From: a phage
Direction: 5' to 3' (one strand)
DNA length: 44,263 bases
Assembly (NCBI GenBank): GCA_029038705.1
Contig: GCA_029038705.1_4346.1
Under the pieces are notes generated by a model. It saw only the letters and a program-made list of their open reading frames with translations. It had not been told where the DNA came from and made no database searches. Numbering within the stretch: the first letter of the stretch is position 1; each line of letters opens with the position of its first letter. A program made the translations under genes and the position numbers. Positions 1-44,263 of the stretch are shown piece after piece.

Positions 1-30
1 AAAAAAAATCCCGGCTGGGTCAGGGCCGGG
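1..30 (-). terminator. Rho-independent terminator at the end of the lysis operon
   Basis: Stem CCCGGC/GCCGGG (about 10-30); on the minus strand it is followed by a run of 8-9 U (plus-strand A8 at 1-8). Confidence 0.6.
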
Positions 31-103
31 ATAAAACTGGAGAGCAGAGGGATGGAACAGGAGGTGATTTAAGTATCGTCTGATTAGTCTTAGGTGTCAA
101 TTG

Positions 104-136
104 GTAAAATAAAACCCGGATTCGCGGTCCGGGTTT
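104..136 (-). terminator. Rho-independent terminator downstream of the endolysin
   Basis: Stem AAACCCGG/CCGGGTTT with a 9 nt loop; on the minus strand it is followed by UUUUAUUUUACC. Confidence 0.6.
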
Positions 137-262
137 CGGGCATAAGCCCCTGAACCCTACGCAGTCTCCACCACCTGGGCTGCTGCTTCAGGTTTACCAG
201 GGCTTAGTATGCAAGCACAAGCAGCGTGATGTAAGTTTACTAAACGCCTTCGTATTCGTCCA

Positions 263-21525: not shown

Positions 21526-21881
21526 AATTCAATCTCCGTGTACGTGTCTCTGAGGTCCGCCAGCCTGTCAAGCCGTACCTGGCGGGATGCAAGCTCGCAA
21601 TGACTCACCATCCCGTCGAAGTAAACTCCCGCATGCCACACGATACGACCCCCGCGGCGATAACCCATAAGCACCGCGCAGAAGTTTTCAGGCTTATCAA
21701 TTTTTGTAAGCCCCTTCGTGTCACGGCGGCCTTCGTCAAACGCTTCGTTAATTGCCGTTGGGCTTGTAACGTCGAACGCAGGGGTTTCTAACCCGGCATC
21801 CGCGCGGACAATGCGCACGTGATGCCAGCAATTGCGTTTGCGAAAGTCGTAAGGTATGCCCGTGTAGTCGTTAATATTCAT
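21516..21881 (-). CDS. Tail assembly protein, possible NlpC/P60-type (gpK-like)
   Basis: 121 aa with candidate Cys/His residues (NCWHHV, WHAGVY); positioned as lambda K. Confidence 0.4.
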   Translation of the reverse strand: MNINDYTGIPYDFRKRNCWHHVRIVRADAGLETPAFDVTSPTAINEAFDEGRRDTKGLTKIDKPENFCAVLMGYRRGGRIVWHAGVYFDGMVSHCELASRQVRLDRLADLRDTYTEIEFWR

Positions 21882-23797: not shown

Positions 23798-25815
23798 TAT
23801 TTGAACCCCGGCGCGTTTCTTGTGGCCTTGCGAGCCTTGCTAATCTTACTGTTGCTGTTCTGCAAAGACGCGGCAACCTGTTCTTCAATGATGATACGCA
23901 AACGGCCCTCATCATCTTGCTCAGTGGATACGTTGCCGATTTGAGAACTCGTGTTGTTTACGATAGTAACATTAGATGGGCCACTATTTCCGCTATTATT
24001 ACCGTTTAACTGCTGCCGTGTTTGACTTGCATTGGTCGCCCTGCCAGAACCCGCCATCTTGATAATCTCAGGGCCGCGTTCACCAACCAGGTAACTACCG
24101 CCAGCGTTCATTTGCCCGCCTTGCTCACGCGCGCCGCTAATCTTGGCGATGTTCGCCACCCCCGCCGCGACAGCCAGACCCGCGGCAACCGGAGCGAGTG
24201 CCGGGCCGACAATTGGAATAGCAGCAGTTGATTTATAGGCTTCGATAGCAGCCGTGTAAGTGGCAATAGTCGCTTGCGTTATGGCGAACGCTTTGTACGC
24301 AGCGGACGTCTCCCCCAGTGCGGATTTAGCATCCGCTGCCATGCTGCCGAATGCGTCGGCGGTGGCGTTGGCTTGTGCAATATTGCTCTGTTCGTTCAGG
24401 TTACGCACTGCATTAGCGTATTCTTCTTCGCTGATTAGTTTCTGTTTAAGGAAATCGTCCAGTTGCTTAAGTTTGGCGTCATTCTGCCGTTGGATTTCCT
24501 CGAACTCTGTGCCACCAAGCGCCTGTAGTTTCTCCAGATATGCATCAGCATTGTTATACAGCGCATCTCGTTGTGCCTGAAACTCCGCCATGATGTCACT
24601 TTTCGACTTCTCGTAGTCAGCGTCGCTTACGAGTTGCTTGTCGTGGAACTCCTGCAATTTAGCCAGTTTCTGTTTCTCTTTGGCGTCTATCCGTTCTAAC
24701 TCTGTTCCGGTGTTTGTGTCTATTTGAGCTATAAACTGGTCTGCGGCTTTCTGTGCGCTTTCCTGCGCGCGAGCGTCGGCGCGGGCTTGAGCATCTGCTC
24801 GTTTCTTAGCTGCGGCAGCGATACGATTCTGCCTGTCTATTTCCTTCTGTGCCCTGTCCGCCTTATCCTTTTCATACGTCTTCTCAGATTGCTCTACCCC
24901 TTTTCGCTCGGCTGCGCGGGTCTTTTCCTCCACACCAAGGTAGTTAAGTTCATTTCGCAGTTTATTTATTTCCATCTGCGCTTCTGGCGTTTTGGCGTTT
25001 ATGCCGTCCAGGTAGGCGACCAGCCCTTCTCGAGCTCCAGGAACCCCAGCTGCGATTGCTTTCTGAGCAACTTCAATACTGCGTAACTCTTTGGCGGTCA
25101 ACCCCGCCGCTTCCGCAGCGGATTCGTACTGGAAAGCCACGGCCCCGGCAGCGTCCCCGCCTTGGGCTATCTGTGATGCGGCAAGGTTGGTGGTCAACTT
25201 CTGAAACAGAGATTGGGCTTTTGTTACCTTATCAATAGCTTCAACAATCTTATCTGCGGTGGAGTTAGCCTGTATGGCGGTTGCCTCTAGTGCCTTATTA
25301 AGAAATGCCATCTTCTCCGCTGTTGTTGCCCCGACAGCGTCCAGTTTTTCCAGTGCGTCATTCATGTCATACACACCGGGTGTGGCCTCATTAAGAGCGT
25401 CATCAAGGAACTTAGTAGCTTCCTCCAGTTGTTTAGCGGTATCCGTTGAGTTACTCAAAGACGCGTACAGCGCGCCGCCGATTACGGTGGCGATAGTCAA
25501 TACCGTGCCCGCAATTGGATTGAATGCGGACACTAACTGACTACCTTGTTGCGTGAAAGCCGTGAGGGCGGACTGCCCCCCTTGGATTTGTACGATAAAG
25601 TCCTGTACCTGATACCCAGCATTACCTATTGACGCCCGCATCGCGTTCATCTTCGGGGTTGCCGCGGAGGTGGTGTCCGTTAGTTTCTTTGTGCTGGAAT
25701 CCGCTTTCCCAGCGGAACTACTAAGGTTATCTAACTGCTTTGCTGCTTGCTCCGCTCCAGTTGCCTGGACTCGCACCATTAAACTCGCGGTATCAGCCAT
25801 TATAATCGTCCTCAT
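23797..25815 (-). CDS. Tail tape measure protein
   Basis: 672 aa; long Ala/Gln/Lys/Glu-rich coiled-coil core, C-terminal hydrophobic/Gly-rich segment (IVGPALAPVAAGLAVAAG...GERGPE). Confidence 0.8.
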   Translation of the reverse strand: MRTIIMADTASLMVRVQATGAEQAAKQLDNLSSSAGKADSSTKKLTDTTSAATPKMNAMRASIGNAGYQVQDFIVQIQGGQSALTAFTQQGSQLVSAFNPIAGTVLTIATVIGGALYASLSNSTDTAKQLEEATKFLDDALNEATPGVYDMNDALEKLDAVGATTAEKMAFLNKALEATAIQANSTADKIVEAIDKVTKAQSLFQKLTTNLAASQIAQGGDAAGAVAFQYESAAEAAGLTAKELRSIEVAQKAIAAGVPGAREGLVAYLDGINAKTPEAQMEINKLRNELNYLGVEEKTRAAERKGVEQSEKTYEKDKADRAQKEIDRQNRIAAAAKKRADAQARADARAQESAQKAADQFIAQIDTNTGTELERIDAKEKQKLAKLQEFHDKQLVSDADYEKSKSDIMAEFQAQRDALYNNADAYLEKLQALGGTEFEEIQRQNDAKLKQLDDFLKQKLISEEEYANAVRNLNEQSNIAQANATADAFGSMAADAKSALGETSAAYKAFAITQATIATYTAAIEAYKSTAAIPIVGPALAPVAAGLAVAAGVANIAKISGAREQGGQMNAGGSYLVGERGPEIIKMAGSGRATNASQTRQQLNGNNSGNSGPSNVTIVNNTSSQIGNVSTEQDDEGRLRIIIEEQVAASLQNSNSKISKARKATRNAPGFK

Positions 25816-33271: not shown

Positions 33272-33332
33272 TGAGGGATCCTCTTAGTAAATGAAAAGAG
33301 GGACCGAAGTCCCTCTCGATTATAGCTTAACC

Positions 33333-34382
33333 TTAAGCACCTACACCAGTTACCAGGAAGGCAATAGGCACATGCTTACGTTCAACCACACGGTTCCAGT
33401 TGGAGGCGTTCGCCAGGTCCTGCCAGGAAGCGGAGCGCGGGGTAGTCTCGGTGCCGTTGCCAGTGATTACTGCGCTGGTGAAGCTGTAGCCCAGTGGGTG
33501 CAGTAACCAGGTCTTACGGGTCCACAAGGTTTCGACACCGCCACCATTGCCGCGGGACTCTTCGCGCTCATATGCCAGCGGATTTTTCGGGTTACCTTCG
33601 CCGTAACCGATAGCGCCGTTGCCGAAGATGATGGAGATAAACTTACGGCTCGGGCCTGTACCAACTACCGTCATGCTGTCATCAACAATCACGCGGTAGC
33701 CCTGGTAGGTGGCGAACAGGGTATCGTTGTCAGCGTTTTTGATGAAGTCAATAAGCTGCTGCTTACGGGCCTGCGCATAAACGAAGCTGTGCATCGCGAT
33801 AGCGCCCAGCACTTCACCGCCGTTGCCCATCAGCGCATCACCCATAGTCTGGGTAGCGTCGATGAACGCGCCCGCGTCGAAGCCTTTAGTAGCGGACACG
33901 TCGATCACCATGTCGTTCTGCTCGTGGTATGCGTCGGTAGCGGCCACGTTGTCATTGTACAGACCGAGCGCGGTGGCAATCAGACGGCGTTGTGCCTGGC
34001 GCTGCCAGAAGTTATCCAGGCGAGAAGCTACTGATTGCAGCGGGTTCTGGCTGGTCAGTTCGACAGTCAGGTCCGCCTGGCCGAAACCTTCGTTCAGGTA
34101 TGCAACGCGCGCCATCATCTCACCGGTCCGCACGTTACGCGGGGTAGCGATATCCTGGTATACGTCGTTCGAGTAGTTTGGCTCGATAGAGGTATCAATC
34201 GCTTTCCAGAAAGGAATATTAGCGATGTTGGACGGGCCGCGGGCAATCTCGGCAGCGTATGGGGTCGGGGTCAGAATACCAGACTGGAAGAACGCGGTTT
34301 TTTCTACCGGGTCCTCGGTCATATAAGACGCCAGGACCGGGATGTTGCCAGTTACGATATCGCCGATAGTAGTAATTGCCAT
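33333..34382 (-). CDS. Major capsid protein
   Basis: 349 aa; position after the scaffold gene; strong RBS. Fold not verified. Confidence 0.7.
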   Translation of the reverse strand: MAITTIGDIVTGNIPVLASYMTEDPVEKTAFFQSGILTPTPYAAEIARGPSNIANIPFWKAIDTSIEPNYSNDVYQDIATPRNVRTGEMMARVAYLNEGFGQADLTVELTSQNPLQSVASRLDNFWQRQAQRRLIATALGLYNDNVAATDAYHEQNDMVIDVSATKGFDAGAFIDATQTMGDALMGNGGEVLGAIAMHSFVYAQARKQQLIDFIKNADNDTLFATYQGYRVIVDDSMTVVGTGPSRKFISIIFGNGAIGYGEGNPKNPLAYEREESRGNGGGVETLWTRKTWLLHPLGYSFTSAVITGNGTETTPRSASWQDLANASNWNRVVERKHVPIAFLVTGVGA

Positions 34383-34384
34383 TA

Positions 34385-35140
34385 TTATTTCCTCAGGGCT
34401 TTAAGTTGCCGTTCAAATTCGGCAGGGTTCGATTTATACAGGGCTAAACGCTCTGCTTCACTCATGTCTTTAAACGCTGGTGCGGCCCCGCCGCCTTTGC
34501 CACCGGAAGCCCCGCCGCCGGAAGCTGCATTTGCTTTAATCAAATGCGAAAACGCTTTGTGTTCACGCAAATATTTACGGAACTGTTCCGGGTCAGTTGT
34601 GATTACATTGCCATCTGCGCCGACAAACTTAGTAACCACATCATCGCCTTCGAACTCAGTCTTAACGAACGGTGCAAGAATGTCTACTGCTTCAGGGGTG
34701 ATAAAGTCGCCCGCGAAAGAGCCTAACACCGCTTTACGTTCGCTGCCGAGGATGCGCTCTGCCATTTTGGAGATGCGACCATCTTTCTCAGCTAACACCG
34801 GGTCATACTGGCTACGAATCGTCTTTTCGAACTCGTCCATCTTACCAGCGGCTTTTAACGCCTCCTGGTGGGCACGCTGCCGTTCTTCTTCGGCCTCTTT
34901 TGCTTTACGAGCGGCTTCTTTCTTCTCCGCCAGCAACGCTTCCTGATTGGCCTTAAGCCCGGCTACTTCTTTCTCAATCAGCGCCTGAACTTCTTCAGCG
35001 GTGAACATTTTTGGCGCGTCACCGCCACCAGCTTTATCTTCTGCCCCAGCTTCTTCCTGGAACGGATAACGTAAAAAACGATTCATAGTCAGTATGTCCC
35101 CTGGACGTTGGAACCCGGGCCACCCGGATTTACATGTCAA
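34385..35140 (-). CDS. Scaffolding protein
   Basis: Coiled-coil, Ala/Glu/Lys-rich (EALLAEKKEAARKAKEAEEERQRAHQEALKAAGK). Real start may be the ATG at about 35086, which has GGGGA upstream. Confidence 0.55.
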   Translation of the reverse strand: MTCKSGWPGFQRPGDILTMNRFLRYPFQEEAGAEDKAGGGDAPKMFTAEEVQALIEKEVAGLKANQEALLAEKKEAARKAKEAEEERQRAHQEALKAAGKMDEFEKTIRSQYDPVLAEKDGRISKMAERILGSERKAVLGSFAGDFITPEAVDILAPFVKTEFEGDDVVTKFVGADGNVITTDPEQFRKYLREHKAFSHLIKANAASGGGASGGKGGGAAPAFKDMSEAERLALYKSNPAEFERQLKALRK

Positions 35141-35168: not shown

Positions 35169-35432
35169 CTATTCCAGAATATTCCTCACGTAGTCCTGCA
35201 ACATGAACACTTTCAGCCTCAGTTGCCGTACGCATTCGGCGTTCTGAACGTCGATAGCCAAATCCTCGTCAGCGTCGTTACTTGGCGGAGCCAGTTTGCA
35301 CGGCGGCTGCATCATTGTCGTATCCGGGGATGGAATTAGCGTTTGCGACGGCGCTGGACTTGAGCAGGACGCGAGCATCGTCGAAAGTGCACACGCTGCG
35401 ACCAGGCGTTTTAATGTACTTAACGACTTCAC
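35169..35432 (-). CDS. Outer-membrane spanin (Rz1-like lipoprotein)
   Basis: 87 aa; signal peptide with lipobox LASC (MKSLSTLKRLVAACALSTMLASC), Pro-rich mature part; starts inside the i-spanin gene in another frame and extends past its stop. Confidence 0.7.
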   Translation of the reverse strand: MKSLSTLKRLVAACALSTMLASCSSPAPSQTLIPSPDTTMMQPPCKLAPPSNDADEDLAIDVQNAECVRQLRLKVFMLQDYVRNILE

Positions 35433-35664
35433 GGGTAATTACCTCTGATTTCGTCTTGCCTTCGTTGTCAGCGGCTGCGGCCTTTGATTCGTCCTGCTGC
35501 TGCCGTTGTGTTTTCTTCGCCAACTCAGCCTGTGCTTTCTGCTGTTGCTGAGAAACGAGATTCGCCCGGCCTTCGTTCCAGCCGCTGCGGTACTGGTAGA
35601 TGCCGTGTGCGTAAGCCAGGATGACGAAACATGCTCCTGCTACGACAGTTGCTTTAAGATTCAT
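35278..35664 (-). CDS. Inner-membrane spanin (Rz-like)
   Basis: 128 aa; N-terminal TM helix (ATVVAGACFVILAYA) then Gln/Ala/Lys-rich coiled coil; GGAGA RBS. Confidence 0.7.
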   Translation of the reverse strand: MNLKATVVAGACFVILAYAHGIYQYRSGWNEGRANLVSQQQQKAQAELAKKTQRQQQDESKAAAADNEGKTKSEVITREVVKYIKTPGRSVCTFDDARVLLKSSAVANANSIPGYDNDAAAVQTGSAK

Positions 35665-35915
35665 GTTTCTCCTTTCTCGATAAGTAAAGCCCCGCTTTAA
35701 GGCGGGGCGCTAGTCCTTATCATTTAAACATAGAAACGGCGTAATCTCAGTAAACCCGTTACTTTTTACACGAGCAATAGAGTATGGCCCTTCCGAACGC
35801 GTCAGCGTAACTACACTCATGACTTACGTCCCGCTCCGTTACCTGCCCGCGCCGCGGTCGCTTGTTCATACTTCACAAGCTCAGGTGGAGCTTAGCACAT
35901 TTTTAGTGAAAAGTC

Positions 35916-35931
35916 AACTATTCGAATAGTT
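35916..35931. repeat. Perfect 16 bp palindrome AACTATTCGAATAGTT
   Basis: Read directly. Shares the GAATAGTT half-site with the promoter element; GGAATAA is repeated twice just downstream (about 35954-35969). Confidence 0.6.
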
Positions 35932-35978
35932 TATTCCTACATTTACAATTTGGTGGAATAACTGGAATAATCACAGGC

Positions 35979-36003
35979 ATTAAAAAGCCCCTTTCGGGGC
36001 CTA
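35979..36003 (-). terminator. Rho-independent terminator
   Basis: Hairpin GCCCC-TTTC-GGGGC; minus strand is followed by UUUUUAA. Confidence 0.5.
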
Positions 36004-36006
36004 AGT

Positions 36007-36468
36007 TTATTCTGGCTTAGTGACCTTCGCCGCTTTGCTGACAGCCTCTACACCATCGGCATCAGTAACTTTAACGAAGTATTCCCCAACAGAATTAACC
36101 GTCAGATACAAAGCCTCTTCCGGGGCGTTAACCACTTCCTTCCCGTCTTTGTACCAGGTCAGCGCATATGGTGCTTTGCCCGCCTTAACTTCGACAGCGA
36201 TATTTGCGCTGCCGTCTGCCAGTTCAGCGTCCTGCGGTTGTACGGAGAAATACACATCACCAGCATCCGCCAGGTACTGAATCTCATAAAGCATGCCCGC
36301 CGCCGGTAGCGCAATACCGGTTTTATCTGCAAACGGCATATCGTCTACGGGCGCACCCAGTACACTTTCATCTTCAATAAATACCACGTTCTCGCCGGAG
36401 CCAGGCACACGGGCGTACTGGACTACGCGACGCGACGGTACATCAGTTACTTTGAAAAAGCCCATCAT
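36007..36468 (-). CDS. Ig-like domain protein
   Basis: 153 aa; ALTWYKDGKEV...VGEYFVKVTDADG is an Ig-like pattern. Confidence 0.5.
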   Translation of the reverse strand: MMGFFKVTDVPSRRVVQYARVPGSGENVVFIEDESVLGAPVDDMPFADKTGIALPAAGMLYEIQYLADAGDVYFSVQPQDAELADGSANIAVEVKAGKAPYALTWYKDGKEVVNAPEEALYLTVNSVGEYFVKVTDADGVEAVSKAAKVTKPE

Positions 36469-37544: not shown

Positions 37545-37647
37545 AAAAATAATATCTCAGGGAATTTTTTCTTATTGCGGTGCGATGTCTTGCTGTGGTA
37601 CATGTATATACACAATCTTTATACTAGAAGAAGCGGAGGGTATTTTA

Positions 37648-38997
37648 ATGGGGTCCAGACGTTTAACTGAAGAAGATGTAAACCTGAGACTGGCGTCACG
37701 GGGTATAGTAGTAATTGAGTATGCAGGCCACTCTAAACTTAAGTCTAAATTCCGCTGCCGTAGTGGCCATGTGTGGGAGACAAAGGCCAATACCGTCCTA
37801 AACGGTCATGGTTGCCCCCAATGCTACGCTGCGGAAAAACGGGCGAAAGTAACAGAGTGGCCTAATGGGGTTGAATGCCTTAATTACGCAGGTGCTGTAA
37901 GTGGGAAATCAACGTTCAGATGTAAATGCGGGTTCGTCTGGTCCGCTACCGGCAGCGACATTTTAAGGGGTAAAAGTCATTGCCCGAATTGCAGCACTAA
38001 CAGAAAAAGGCTCGAGATCGGAGAAATAGAGGAAAGGTTACGCGGCACTGGTTTTGAACTGGTGTCTTATTCAGGGGATATCTGCCGTGCGCCATCGACA
38101 CTGAGGTGTCAAAAAGGCCATGAATGGGCCTCTACGCTTGGTAACATTTTTCAGGGTAGAGGGTGCCCGCGGTGCGCGTCGTTCGGGCGTAGTAAAGTGG
38201 AGGATGAAGTCTGTGAATTTCTCGATAGCATGGGGGTGGAATATCATCGGAATGATAGAAGTCTTATCCACCCAAGAGAGATAGATATTTTAATACCGCA
38301 ACATAATCTGGCGATAGAAATAAACGGCCTGTACTGGCACAGTGAAGCTGCCGGGAAGGGGAGAAAGTATCACATGGAGAAAAGAGTCGCCGTTGAGGAA
38401 AGAGGGTTCAGGCTCCTGTCAATAAGGGATGAGCTATGGCTGCATAAAAAAGAAATAATAAAGAAAATAATCGGCCATTCCGTCGGCGTCTCTTCTTTGC
38501 GAGTTTTCGCCCGCAAATGCCATGTAAAAGAGATTAACAAAATATGTGCAGAGCGTTTCCTGGAGGAGAACCACATTCAAGGATTCCGTAACTCGACGAG
38601 GTATATCAGCCTCGTTTATGAAGAAAAGATTGTTGCGGTAATGACGCTGACGTGTAGAAAAGGTGAATGGGAGCTTGTGCGGTACGCTACGTCGTGTTCG
38701 GTGGTAGGCGGGCTGTCGAAGCTATGGGCCTATGCCGTGCGCCGTTATAGCATCACCGACGGTTTTACCTACACTGACCGGGATTTATTTACCGGAGAAT
38801 CATACCTATCAGCGGGGTTTAAAAAGGCTTCTGTGAGATGTGGATTCCGCATCGTCGTAAACAATGCGACTAAAACAGAATCACGGCAAAAATGGAACAA
38901 AGCGCCAGAGGGGCTTACACAGTCGGAATGGTACGCTGCGGAAGGTGTATCCCGCATATGGGATAGCGGACAAGAGAAATTGGTATGGAATAAGTGA
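37648..38997 (+). CDS. Stand-alone nuclease with repeated zinc-ribbon modules and a PD-(D/E)XK-like core (homing-endonuclease-like)
   Basis: Three repeats of a C-x-x-G/C-H...CPxC module (CRSGHVWET..CPQC; CKCGFVWSA..CPNC; CQKGHEWAS..CPRC), then REIDILIP...AIEINGLYWHS. Start is probably the ATG at 37648 (GGAGGG RBS), not 37585. Confidence 0.55.
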   Translation: MGSRRLTEEDVNLRLASRGIVVIEYAGHSKLKSKFRCRSGHVWETKANTVLNGHGCPQCYAAEKRAKVTEWPNGVECLNYAGAVSGKSTFRCKCGFVWSATGSDILRGKSHCPNCSTNRKRLEIGEIEERLRGTGFELVSYSGDICRAPSTLRCQKGHEWASTLGNIFQGRGCPRCASFGRSKVEDEVCEFLDSMGVEYHRNDRSLIHPREIDILIPQHNLAIEINGLYWHSEAAGKGRKYHMEKRVAVEERGFRLLSIRDELWLHKKEIIKKIIGHSVGVSSLRVFARKCHVKEINKICAERFLEENHIQGFRNSTRYISLVYEEKIVAVMTLTCRKGEWELVRYATSCSVVGGLSKLWAYAVRRYSITDGFTYTDRDLFTGESYLSAGFKKASVRCGFRIVVNNATKTESRQKWNKAPEGLTQSEWYAAEGVSRIWDSGQEKLVWNK

Positions 38998-44212: not shown

Positions 44213-44241
44213 AATATAATAGGGTCGAGGATAATAGTCAA
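44213..44241 (-). promoter_or_regulatory. Sigma70-like promoter (TTGACT-N17-TATATT) with two CTATTAT elements
   Basis: Minus strand: TTGACTATTATCCTCGACCCTATTATATT. Confidence 0.5.
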
Positions 44242-44263
44242 CTAGTCATTACAGAAAACAGAT

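Follow-up and report, generated by a model that had tools for sequence, protein, structure and literature searches.

Where a phage carries its spanin genes among those for the head, remote from holin and endolysin, two questions arise, namely whether the two reading frames are indeed spanins and from which transcript they would be made. Both are raised by a locus at positions 35169–35664 of a stretch of phage DNA of 44,263 nucleotides (the window, meaning the whole stretch that was analysed). An initial annotation placed there an Rz-like inner-membrane protein and an overlapping, Pro-rich Rz1-like lipoprotein with the lipobox LASC, and both ORFs are found at these coordinates on the minus strand. 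As it also held, they lie between the gene for an Ig-like (Hoc-like) protein (36007–36468) and the scaffold gene (34385–35140), beyond which the major capsid gene follows (33333–34382). The best explanation of the locus as a whole, to which we assign a probability of roughly 85%, is that these are Jersey-type spanins at a fixed position and, most likely, produced late in infection from the transcript of the capsid gene.

The window is a complete genome of a Kagunavirus (Guernseyvirinae), and its closest relatives infect E. coli and Salmonella, in agreement with the Gram-negative host that had been deduced from the spanins. The lysis cassette lies at 263–1299 on the same (minus) strand as the spanin pair, with ORFs and profile matches in accord: two holin genes (991–1299 and 726–998), identified by matches to PHROG 2359 and 2508, and an endolysin gene at 263–748, or 263–799 when read from the first possible start, the product of which matches PF00959 (E 1.7e-25) and PHROG 33703. 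Since the ends of the window are contiguous in a relative, where 1200 nt taken across the junction align with 99.1% identity, the distance between pair and cassette can be taken on the circle, where it amounts to 8,862 nt (33,870 nt on the linear window); the earlier claim that a large distance persists under circular permutation therefore stands, but the figure of more than 9 kb given with it does not. By either count, the pair lacks the adjacency to the endolysin that characterizes a canonical, contiguous holin-endolysin-spanin cassette. The proposal of a separate operon for holins and endolysin is plausible: the stretch 3' of the endolysin gene (1–140, minus strand), which is kept in 445 phage records, holds one terminator-like hairpin at about 137–106, a promoter-like site at 100–72 and a second terminator-like hairpin at about 35–1 that crosses the window junction and continues to about 44256. 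In all, two strong terminator-like hairpins and two promoter-like sites were recorded after the endolysin gene on this strand. A simple terminator scan missed the hairpins after the endolysin and the Hoc-like genes, both of which come from sequence reading and local folding.

The i-spanin (Rz-like) gene (35278–35664, minus strand) starts with an ATG placed 6 nt after the Shine-Dalgarno (SD) sequence AAGGAG, and encodes 128 residues, with a transmembrane helix predicted at the N terminus and a helical domain predicted in the periplasm. Residues 3–19, with Lys4 on their N-terminal side, are hydrophobic (mean Kyte-Doolittle value 1.92) and there is no second hydrophobic segment; in ten diverse homologues, the position of this helix is kept and Cys92 is invariant. 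A single-sequence AF2 model draws a helix over residues 3–84, from the transmembrane segment into the periplasmic domain, with pLDDT values of 72–86 up to about residue 60, a mean of only 60.8 and low confidence beyond about residue 65, the C-terminal 45 residues included. The o-spanin (Rz1-like) gene (35169–35432, minus strand) lies in the +1 frame and codes for 87 residues from a GTG start, a position occupied by GTG or ATG in relatives. Inside the Rz gene, 9 nt 5' of this start, the sequence reads GAGG (35442–35445, minus strand), a candidate SD. The signal MKSLSTLKRLVAACALSTMLAS is followed by the lipobox Cys23, with Ser at +2. This cysteine is invariant, +2 being S, Q, A, N or G in homologues and never D, and some Jersey-type lipoboxes read L-N-G-C, atypical at position -2. 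Mature Rz1 has 65 residues, all eight of its prolines fall within the first 30 of these, and Cys45 and Cys67 are invariant in ten diverse homologues.

The two genes overlap by 155 nt, and Rz1 runs on for 109 nt after the Rz stop, making the pair overlapped and not embedded, as had been proposed. This geometry is identical in 42 loci, and the +1 ORF with its lipoprotein signal is uninterrupted not only in the window but also in each of the 50 related loci scanned, whose Rz proteins share about 30–96% identity with that of the window. The C-terminal segment of Rz1 encoded past the Rz stop is conserved, and when Kaguna- and Jersey-type sequences are compared, the periodicity of substitutions moves from the Rz to the Rz1 frame exactly at this stop, after which the first, second and third codon positions of Rz1 differ at 0.19, 0.07 and 0.37, respectively. 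These patterns indicate that the dual coding is genuine, beyond chance. Some GenBank records shorten the o-spanin to a product of 48 residues without the signal peptide, a point of relevance for annotation.

Judged by sequence, the features that define a two-component spanin are present in the pair, which is of the overlapped architecture. Rz matches PHROG 2536, "Rz-like spanin" (E 5e-55), and Rz1 matches PHROG 1267 (E 2e-18) and PHROG 5672 (E 1e-29). None of the Pfam spanin families (Phage_lysis/Rz, Rz1, LysC and O_Spanin_T7) is matched by the proteins of the window at E ≤ 0.01, nor does any spanin family rise above threshold for ten diverse homologues searched against Pfam at E ≤ 1, the only matches of which are single and sub-threshold (LysC 0.065, O_Spanin_T7 0.072, DUF2514 0.008). 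Because no Pfam spanin family matches, the assignment rests on the features described above and on the PHROG and Kongari families, and from features and family membership together we infer a spanin function. The latter family is the "Jersey" family of overlapped i-/o-spanins with a 155-bp overlap, defined by Kongari et al. 2018 (BMC Bioinformatics 19:326; PMC6139136), with Jersey, SETP3, K1G, K1H, K1ind1-3, HK578, EP23 and JL1 among its members. With homologous proteins, the same overlapped +1 architecture and 155-nt overlap, and the same position between Hoc-like and scaffold genes, the present pair shows no substantive difference from this family and is one more member of it. By tblastn, the spanin is 62.5% identical to that of Jersey (E 2e-34), 61% to that of SETP3 and 89.8% to that of K1G, and the pair in general is about 90–96% identical to Kagunavirus members and 60–65% to Jersey and SETP3. 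A literature search found no complementation, lipidation or lysis-phenotype test for the Jersey-type spanin family.

Three ORFs with a lipoprotein signal emerged from a six-frame scan of the circularised genome, and only Rz1 is both conserved and overlapping with a membrane-protein gene; the other two, at 21605–21739 (minus strand) and 24724–25086 (plus strand), lie in alternative or antisense frames of tail genes and were judged to be due to chance. A better candidate near the endolysin was sought among the nine small minus-strand ORFs between endolysin and terS, none of which has a lipoprotein signal or a hydrophobic segment at holin or i-spanin level. Rz and Rz1 are the only plausible spanin candidate in the genome. 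Elsewhere, homologues of the pair are found within canonical cassettes: in Klebsiella phage Kp4882-1, the order is holin, SAR-type lysozyme, Rz, Rz1, and in Yersinia phage P400 the spanin homologue is located one gene 3' of the endolysin.

The order portal, MuF, Hoc-like, Rz/Rz1, scaffold, capsid is found in all IMG/VR loci with flanks long enough; the same split layout is seen in the distant, Dhillonvirus-like phage Haito_Bas83. Although real, the location of the spanin pair among head genes, remote from the other lysis genes, is no new finding: these spanins have been annotated in GenBank in K1-specific phages since 2010, an Rz homologue is contained in 545 phage records, and the separation of the spanins from the other lysis genes is explicitly stated in the paper on fBC-Eco01 (PMC9825357).

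Several well-studied phages share parts of this arrangement. T7, too, has the genes for its two-component spanin (gp18.5/gp18.7) in the midst of late genes for virion and packaging proteins, with the small terminase gene on one side and the large terminase gene on the other. Its lysozyme gene 3.5 is located far from these, in the class II region, and the T7 spanin is therefore made with the morphogenesis proteins. T7 differs in that its pair is embedded instead of overlapped, in being transcribed by its own RNA polymerase, in having its holin gene 17.5 one gene from the spanins, compared with 8.9 kb here, and in showing no detectable sequence similarity, the T7 o-spanin family of Pfam giving one sub-threshold match (E 0.07). 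The T4 spanin genes PseT.3/PseT.2 are likewise unlinked from holin (t) and endolysin (e), but they have a separated architecture, reside in a non-structural region and belong to another sequence family; the T4 o-spanin, larger than lambda Rz1 and with a predicted C-terminal helix, can be likened to that of the pair described here (PMC6139136). In P2, the LysB/LysC pair is overlapped as here, the o-spanin frame continuing after the stop of the i-spanin gene (PMC6139136), although that pair is part of a contiguous lysis cassette and LysC of Pfam is matched, below threshold, in one homologue only (E 0.065). Lambda Rz/Rz1 share with the present pair the combination of inner-membrane subunit and outer-membrane lipoprotein, the periplasmic cysteines and the Pro-rich o-spanin, from which the mechanism outlined below is predicted; however, lambda Rz1 is fully embedded, its mature form measures only 40 residues, holin and endolysin are encoded in the same cassette, and there is no similarity at the Pfam level.

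The new part of this analysis is a conserved unit of about 310 nt directly 5' of Rz, kept in 47 of the 47 related loci that include the upstream flank, and composed of an operator-like repeat, a predicted extended -10 promoter, a structured non-coding leader of about 215 nt and a hairpin. Before it, directly after the stop codon of the Hoc-like gene, an intrinsic-terminator-like hairpin is read from the sequence (GGCCCC-GAAA-GGGGC followed by TTTTT; 35982–36001, minus strand), which is conserved in Jersey-type loci with a different stem. Insertions of up to 800 nt always fall 5' of the unit, between this terminator and the operator/promoter block. The operator-like block (35919–35971, minus strand) consists of ATTATTCCAGTTATTCC, with two direct copies of TTATTCC, an inverted GGAATAA and the palindrome TATTCGAATA, a cluster that is unique within the window. 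Of the 47 loci, 40 keep the 17-mer ATTATTCCAGTTATTCC within two substitutions; across these, which comprise Kaguna-, Jersey- and Cornell-like loci, it is invariant and its flanks diverge. An exact search for it in IMG/VR returned 84 stretches, mostly unrelated coding sequence, and upstream of an Rz homologue it occurred in Guernseyvirinae-type loci only.

The predicted σ70 extended -10 promoter (35889–35917, minus strand) comprises TTGACT, a 17-nt spacer ending in TGc, and TAAGCT. Jersey-type (TAGACT...TGtTACGCT) and Cornell-like (TGGACT...TGaTAACCT) loci retain the hexamers, the TGn and the spacing of 17 nt but diverge in spacer sequence, and the annotation of fBC-Eco01 has a predicted host promoter at the corresponding site. 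It is a sequence prediction without an entry in a simple promoter scan, the promoter-like counts of which sit at chance level. After the major capsid gene, a terminator-like hairpin (33286–33317, minus strand), annotated as a terminator at the equivalent site of fBC-Eco01, marks the predicted end of the Rz-Rz1-scaffold-capsid unit. A literature search found no transcriptome or promoter mapping for Guernseyvirinae.

The leader (35665–35882, minus strand) covers the distance between the predicted transcription start and the start codon of Rz, is present in a single copy in the window, and folds with a minimum free energy of -73.7 kcal/mol (z -2.76). Across the alignment, 98.2% of cells pair, compared with at most 49% in slid controls, and seven pairs are changed on both sides, compared with 0–3 in these controls; this comparison covers three leader types, with covariation mainly from two or three clades, and it is biased in favour of the structure, because the structure was predicted from the same alignment. 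Since local hairpins compete with a long-range 5'-3' pairing drawn by RNAalifold (alignment columns 31–45 with 232–246), the structure that was tested did not include this pairing. Among the hairpins retained are GNRA-capped ones with compensatory changes (GGAC/GUCC to GUGC/GCAC, and GGGCGU/ACGCCC to GGGCGC/GCGCCC), and a single-stranded core, GGAAGGGCC (35794–35786), is conserved and unpaired in all three leader types. No Rfam family matched, either over the whole window at gathering thresholds or over 35600–36050 at E ≤ 10. Two ORFs of 36 residues within the leader were rejected as genes: the ATG of that at 35710–35820 is CTG in most relatives, the start region of that at 35759–35869 is deleted in Jersey-type phages, and one-nucleotide indels occur in three loci (L018, L025 and L026).

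Immediately 5' of the Rz SD lies a hairpin (35679–35720, minus strand) with the core GCCCCGC/GCGGGGC at 35708–35689, the outer stem GATAAG/CTTATC and the tail TTTACTTATC. In this phage, its 7-bp, all-GC stem followed by UUUACUUAUC is terminator-like, and compensatory changes occur in two loci (L029 and L049) and in Jersey-type loci. Jersey-type leaders have a poor U-tract and Cornell-like leaders have none, although the latter keep a hairpin, and termination is therefore unlikely to be its conserved role. As an aside, an efficient terminator at this point would lower, and not support, spanin expression.

Read in order, the proposed unit would comprise terminator, promoter, structured leader, Rz and Rz1 as first cistrons, scaffold, capsid and a final terminator. 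Given the conserved 310-nt unit upstream, it appears that the spanin, scaffold and capsid genes form one transcription unit, with Rz and Rz1 as its genes nearest to the promoter; and given their fixed place behind terminator, promoter and leader and ahead of scaffold and capsid, the spanins are most likely made with the virion proteins, from the capsid-gene transcript and late in infection. Both promoter activity and the extent of the transcript we infer from the signals just described.

The alternative that survives best, although it is an unlikely one, is that the spanins have no promoter of their own and are expressed by read-through from a terminase-portal-head operon, the hairpins and leader being RNA processing or stability elements (RNase III sites, for instance, or a hairpin protecting the 5' end) by which the ratio of upstream to downstream message is set. 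All genes from terS to capsid are encoded on one strand, and in Haito_Bas83 Rz and MuF genes overlap directly, with neither promoter nor leader, so a private promoter is not a general requirement. The hairpin before the SD, which Cornell-like phages keep without a U-tract, can be extended to a stem of about 17 bp with a covarying outer part (GATAAG/CTTATC vs. TATACG/CGTATA), as in a processing site, and T7 has an RNase III site just 5' of its spanin gene 18.5. Against read-through stand the canonical and conserved T5-run terminator after the Hoc-like gene, the preservation of -35, TGn and -10 at exactly 17-nt spacing in three diverged leader types around a diverging spacer, which is typical of a working promoter, and the fact that gene insertions are found between that terminator and the operator/promoter block and never between the block and Rz.

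Less probable again is that promoter, leader and hairpin form a regulated switch, be it antitermination of the lambda pR'/6S-tR' type, a put-like cis RNA or an attenuator, with late expression gated at the hairpin. A promoter, some 200 nt, a GC-rich hairpin with a U-rich tail and finally genes for lysis and morphogenesis follow one another as in the lambda late operon (pR'-6S RNA-tR'), in which spanins also lie near the start of a late unit leading into morphogenesis genes, a likeness that is one of layout only; in addition, the leader structure is conserved with compensatory changes, the GGAAGGGCC core is unpaired in all three leader types, and the upstream TTATTCC repeats suggest a bound regulator. 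However, no Rfam family was matched, the U-tract is weak or absent outside the type found here, in Jersey-type and Cornell-like leaders respectively, and the covariation comes mainly from two or three clades for a structure predicted from the same alignment. In a broader form, somewhat more probable though still unlikely, the 310-nt unit may be an undescribed cis-regulatory module of the Guernseyvirinae, with a leader RNA that would act as a gate, by antitermination or attenuation, on read-through into the spanin-scaffold-capsid message or on its processing or translation; were this true, the spanins would head a late operon, as in lambda. That the ORFs are not spanins at all, the Rz-like protein being a membrane protein for superinfection exclusion or assembly and the Rz1 frame an unexpressed chance ORF, is very improbable, since the lack of Pfam matches and of experiments in the literature and the location outside the lysis cassette are set against a +1 ORF whose lipobox cysteine and two further cysteines are invariant down to about 25% Rz identity, a codon periodicity of the Rz1 frame that persists past the Rz stop, homologues that fill the spanin slot of canonical cassettes, and a genome otherwise devoid of any spanin.

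The function of the pair can be envisaged by analogy with lambda Rz/Rz1. The N-terminal helix would hold the i-spanin in the inner membrane, and the o-spanin would receive its lipid at Cys23 and, because its +2 residue is Ser and not Asp, would be directed to the outer membrane. The two would bind through their periplasmic C-terminal parts, stabilised by disulfides between the conserved cysteines, in a complex that spans the periplasm. An intact peptidoglycan would keep this complex inactive, until removal of the wall by holin and endolysin allows it to disrupt or fuse the outer membrane. Because it would have to wait for wall removal, the holin and not spanin synthesis would set the timing of lysis, and spanin genes would therefore need no co-regulation with the rest of the cassette.

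The value of these findings is mainly one of annotation, as the phage has a complete lysis set of holins, endolysin and two-component spanin despite the split of the genes. The locus adds a further, well-documented example of spanin genes that can do without linkage to those for holin and endolysin, and unlinked spanins fit the view that lysis timing is set by the holin alone. The conserved promoter, leader and hairpin before Rz are the only part able to add new knowledge; if this upstream unit is functional, it would offer a handle on late-gene control in the Guernseyvirinae, a large and therapeutically used subfamily of phages.

The window carries, on its minus strand, an i-spanin gene, Rz (35278-35664), encoding 128 residues whose N-terminus (MNLKATVVAGACFVILAYA...) is the sole hydrophobic segment, and an o-spanin gene, Rz1 (35169-35432), which lies in the +1 frame, starts at a GTG codon with GAGG 9 nt upstream and encodes 87 residues beginning MKSLSTLKRLVAACALSTMLAS-C. 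The Rz1 lipobox reads L-A-S-C, with Ser at +2, and all eight prolines fall within the first 30 mature residues. The two genes overlap by 155 nt, and Rz1 continues for 109 nt beyond the Rz stop. Upstream of the pair are the genes for a Hoc-like Ig-type head decoration protein and a Mu-F-type head morphogenesis protein, and downstream are the scaffold and major capsid genes. The initial annotation, which had described an overlapped pair with a Pro-rich LASC lipoprotein between an Ig-like gene and the scaffold gene, is borne out in both its reading frames and its neighbours. Considering these features together with conservation and context, we assign a probability of about 0.9 to the pair being a functional two-component spanin. 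A profile search of the window proteins and their homologues against the Pfam spanin families returned no membership for Rz or Rz1. In several GenBank records the o-spanin is entered as a 48-aa product from an internal Met (related loci L002, 39039-39185, and L141, 6760-6906), devoid of signal peptide and lipobox, and PHROG 5672 (47 positions) models only the C-terminal piece of the o-spanin. The conserved form is the full 87-aa ORF with its GTG start.

The reality of the second frame was assessed on 47 IMG/VR loci and several GenBank loci, with Rz identities to the window of about 30-96%. The window and 50/50 related loci scanned all have an open +1 frame that starts with a lipoprotein signal. 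Between Kaguna-type and Jersey-type sequences, substitutions in the Rz-only part are maximal at Rz codon position 3, and the 109 nt past the Rz stop follow the pattern of the Rz1 frame (0.19/0.07/0.37 at positions 1/2/3). Between the same two types, the last 36 residues of the o-spanin, which are encoded outside Rz, form its most conserved portion (83% identity), against 22-35% for the signal peptide. When ten diverse homologues are aligned, the Rz1 lipobox Cys, C45, C67 and the acidic D-x-D-E-D-L motif are invariant or nearly so, and C92 of Rz is invariant.

A 2.3-kb stretch around the pair matches 484 phage records in a nucleotide similarity search, the closest being Escherichia phages BUCT825 (97.4%), JSSK01 and vB_VIPECOTH07, followed by the K1-specific phages K1G and K1ind1-3; the best-matching phages all belong to Kagunavirus, subfamily Guernseyvirinae. 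Since a 1200-nt query made by joining the last 600 and first 600 bases of the window aligns to vB_VIPECOTH07 as a single block (99.1% identity), the window is a complete, circularly permuted genome without terminal redundancy. The lysis cassette, comprising two holins and a PF00959 lysozyme (263-1299, minus), shares its strand with the packaging and head genes and is positioned upstream of them. It lies 33,870 nt from the spanin pair on the linear sequence and 8,862 nt on the circle; the separation of about 34 kb proposed earlier thus stands, and the circular distance of "over 9 kb" is the one numerical slip in an observation and interpretation that are otherwise correct.

The first signal after the endolysin stop is a strong terminator-like hairpin (about 137-106, minus; AAACCCGGA...TCCGGGTTT plus TTTTATTTT), followed by a promoter-like site (100-72, minus; TTGACA-17-GATACT), a second strong terminator-like hairpin crossing the window junction (minus) and a further promoter-like site (44241-44213, minus). 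A total of 445 phage records conserve this stretch, among them Salmonella Jerseyviruses with 75-82% identity. Judging from these predicted signals and their conservation, it is reasonable to place the holins and endolysin in an operon separate from the spanins, as the initial annotation did. The region itself (1-140 and 44213-44263, minus) resembles a small, self-contained transcription unit; between promoter-like site 100-72 and the junction-crossing terminator lie about 65 nt rich in C and U (CACCTCCTGTTCCATCCCTCTGCTCTCC...), and the product may be a small RNA that carries anti-SD-like CCUCC motifs.

No better spanin candidate close to the endolysin emerged from lipoprotein and hydropathy scans. 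When the circularised genome was scanned in six frames, three ORFs with a lipoprotein signal were returned, namely Rz1 and two that run within tail genes in an alternative frame or antisense to them. One of these two, a 44-aa ORF with a lipobox-like VVSC (21605-21739, minus) in an alternative frame within a minor tail protein gene, is probably due to chance. Of the nine small ORFs encoded on the minus strand from the endolysin to terS, none has a lipoprotein signal (0/9) or a hydrophobic segment at holin/i-spanin level (0/9).

The placement of the spanins among the head genes, apart from the holin and endolysin, recurs in relatives. The order portal, Mu-F, Hoc-like, Rz/Rz1, scaffold, capsid is found in all IMG/VR loci with sufficiently long flanks, and the portal-to-capsid order with Rz/Rz1 likewise in Klebsiella phage VLCpiS11a and Cornellvirus VSiP. 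Haito_Bas83, a distant Dhillonvirus-like phage (portal 29%, Mu-F 24% identical), is also split: the holin-holin-endolysin genes lie some 2 kb upstream of terS, Rz/Rz1 directly follow Mu-F, and, since Rz overlaps the Mu-F gene, a leader is absent there. Linked arrangements occur as well. Klebsiella phage Kp4882-1 (locus L055, 2251-3460) carries a contiguous holin, SAR-type lysozyme, Rz and overlapped Rz1, its spanins being homologous to those of the window (Rz 36% identical, o-spanin motif D-E-D-L...C-x-R-Q-L-R-L in common), so that one spanin module serves in both arrangements. In Yersinia phage P400 the spanin is one gene downstream of the endolysin, and the whole cassette lies between head-assembly and protease genes. 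The spanin family, with homologues in both split and ordinary cassettes, is therefore a mobile module, and lysis genes and other inserts turn up repeatedly in the slot that follows Mu-F. A 470-aa homing-endonuclease-like gene (37585-38997, plus; PHROG 559/3339 match, DUF4379 zinc-finger and Vsr/REase-like domains) sits on the opposite strand, flanked by the portal and Mu-F genes; it does not occur at the equivalent K1ind1 site.

Ordered elements, all on the minus strand, occupy the 342 nt that separate the Hoc-like gene from Rz (35665-36006, minus). Directly after the Hoc-like stop comes a canonical terminator (36001-35982, GGCCCC-GAAA-GGGGC plus T5), then an invariant operator-like 17-mer, ATTATTCCAGTTATTCC (35971-35955), an inverted GGAATAA and the palindrome TATTCGAATA, then a predicted extended -10 promoter (TTGACT 35917-35912, TAAGCT 35894-35889, 17-nt spacer ending TGc). 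Next come a GC-rich, non-coding, structured leader of about 215 nt (core GGAAGGGCC) and a hairpin (35708-35689, tail TTTACTTATC), and finally an AAGGAG SD and the Rz ATG. Comparison with relatives and the folding of the leader speak for a function of these elements. The promoter has equivalents in Jersey-type loci (TAGACT-17-TGtTACGCT) and Cornell-like contigs (TGGACT-17-TGaTAACCT), with hexamers, TGn and spacing retained and the spacer sequence diverged. Across 47 loci with upstream flank the gap is between 317 and 1117 nt long, and the extra DNA is always upstream of the 17-mer, which defines a unit of about 310 nt at constant distance from Rz. Insertions have a hot spot in the segment bounded by the Hoc-like terminator and the operator block (35972-36006; equivalent in related loci L007-L053), which in some relatives is occupied by reverse-strand small genes or HNH genes.

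The leader, single-copy within the window, folds more stably than its shuffles (-73.7 kcal/mol, z -2.76). An alignment of 25 sequences has pairing in 98.2% of the cells of four helices, versus at most 49% with slid partners, and seven pairs are changed on both sides, versus 0-3 in controls; independent compensatory events are seen in related loci L031 (GGAC/GUCC to GUGC/GCAC) and L029 (GCCCCGC/GCGGGGC to GCCCTGC/GCAGGGC). Small ORFs within the leader are not conserved among relatives and were rejected as genes. The unit has no Rfam match. It appears unlikely that the leader is a regulatory RNA with switch-like function. The hairpin before Rz is terminator-like in this phage; its U-tract is absent in Cornell-like phages, so that what is conserved may be a part in processing, stability or translational control and not in termination. 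The fBC-Eco01 GenBank record already contains an in-silico host promoter and terminator at equivalent positions and calls a hypothetical CDS in the leader. On our reading Rz/Rz1 would be the first cistrons of a spanin-scaffold-capsid unit, a terminator-like hairpin following the capsid gene (33317-33296, minus), and expression of the pair with the scaffold and capsid genes from promoter 35917-35889 is slightly more likely than not.

The 20-mer imperfect palindrome TGAATAGTANCCTATTATNT has six copies in the window (2428, 4037, 7635, 7679 and 10775, plus; 26689, minus) versus 0.05 expected by chance, and its half-sites AATAG/CTATT recur, everted, in the palindrome adjoining the Rz promoter. The same consensus was reported in fBC-Eco01 as a PHIRE 'phage promoter' (PMC9825357); despite that label, the phage lacks its own RNA polymerase, and the 20-mer probably serves a phage regulator as operator. 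The repeat seen upstream of Rz, TTATTCC-AG-TTATTCC followed by inverted GGAATA(A/G) copies, is also present in unrelated viral contigs of 49-136 kb (L099 4980-5050; L101 8010-8086, minus; L085 4324-4360), in L101 directly upstream of a consensus TTGACA-17-TATAAT promoter, which suggests a binding site that is not confined to Guernseyvirinae.

Spanin genes apart from the other lysis genes are a classical finding: T7 carries 18.5 and 18.7 between its two terminase genes, and the T4 spanins pseT.3/pseT.2 are likewise not near holin gene t or endolysin gene e (PMC6139136). Kongari et al. (2018) assigned Jersey, SETP3, K1G, K1H, K1ind1-3, HK578, EP23 and others to a single i-spanin and a single o-spanin family, both in the overlapped class, with a 155-bp overlap in Jersey (PMC6139136). 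Both genes were annotated as putative spanins in the 2010 K1ind1 record, Center for Phage Technology records name them i-spanin and o-spanin, and spanin ORF numbers are far from those of the holins and endolysin in VB_EcoS-Golestan (PMC7203180), JSSK01 (PMC11641727) and SeF1 (PMC9409062). The separation is described explicitly in the fBC-Eco01 paper (PMC9825357). The pair and its split position are thus previously annotated, curated and published, and it is the regulatory unit upstream of Rz that may be the only new part.
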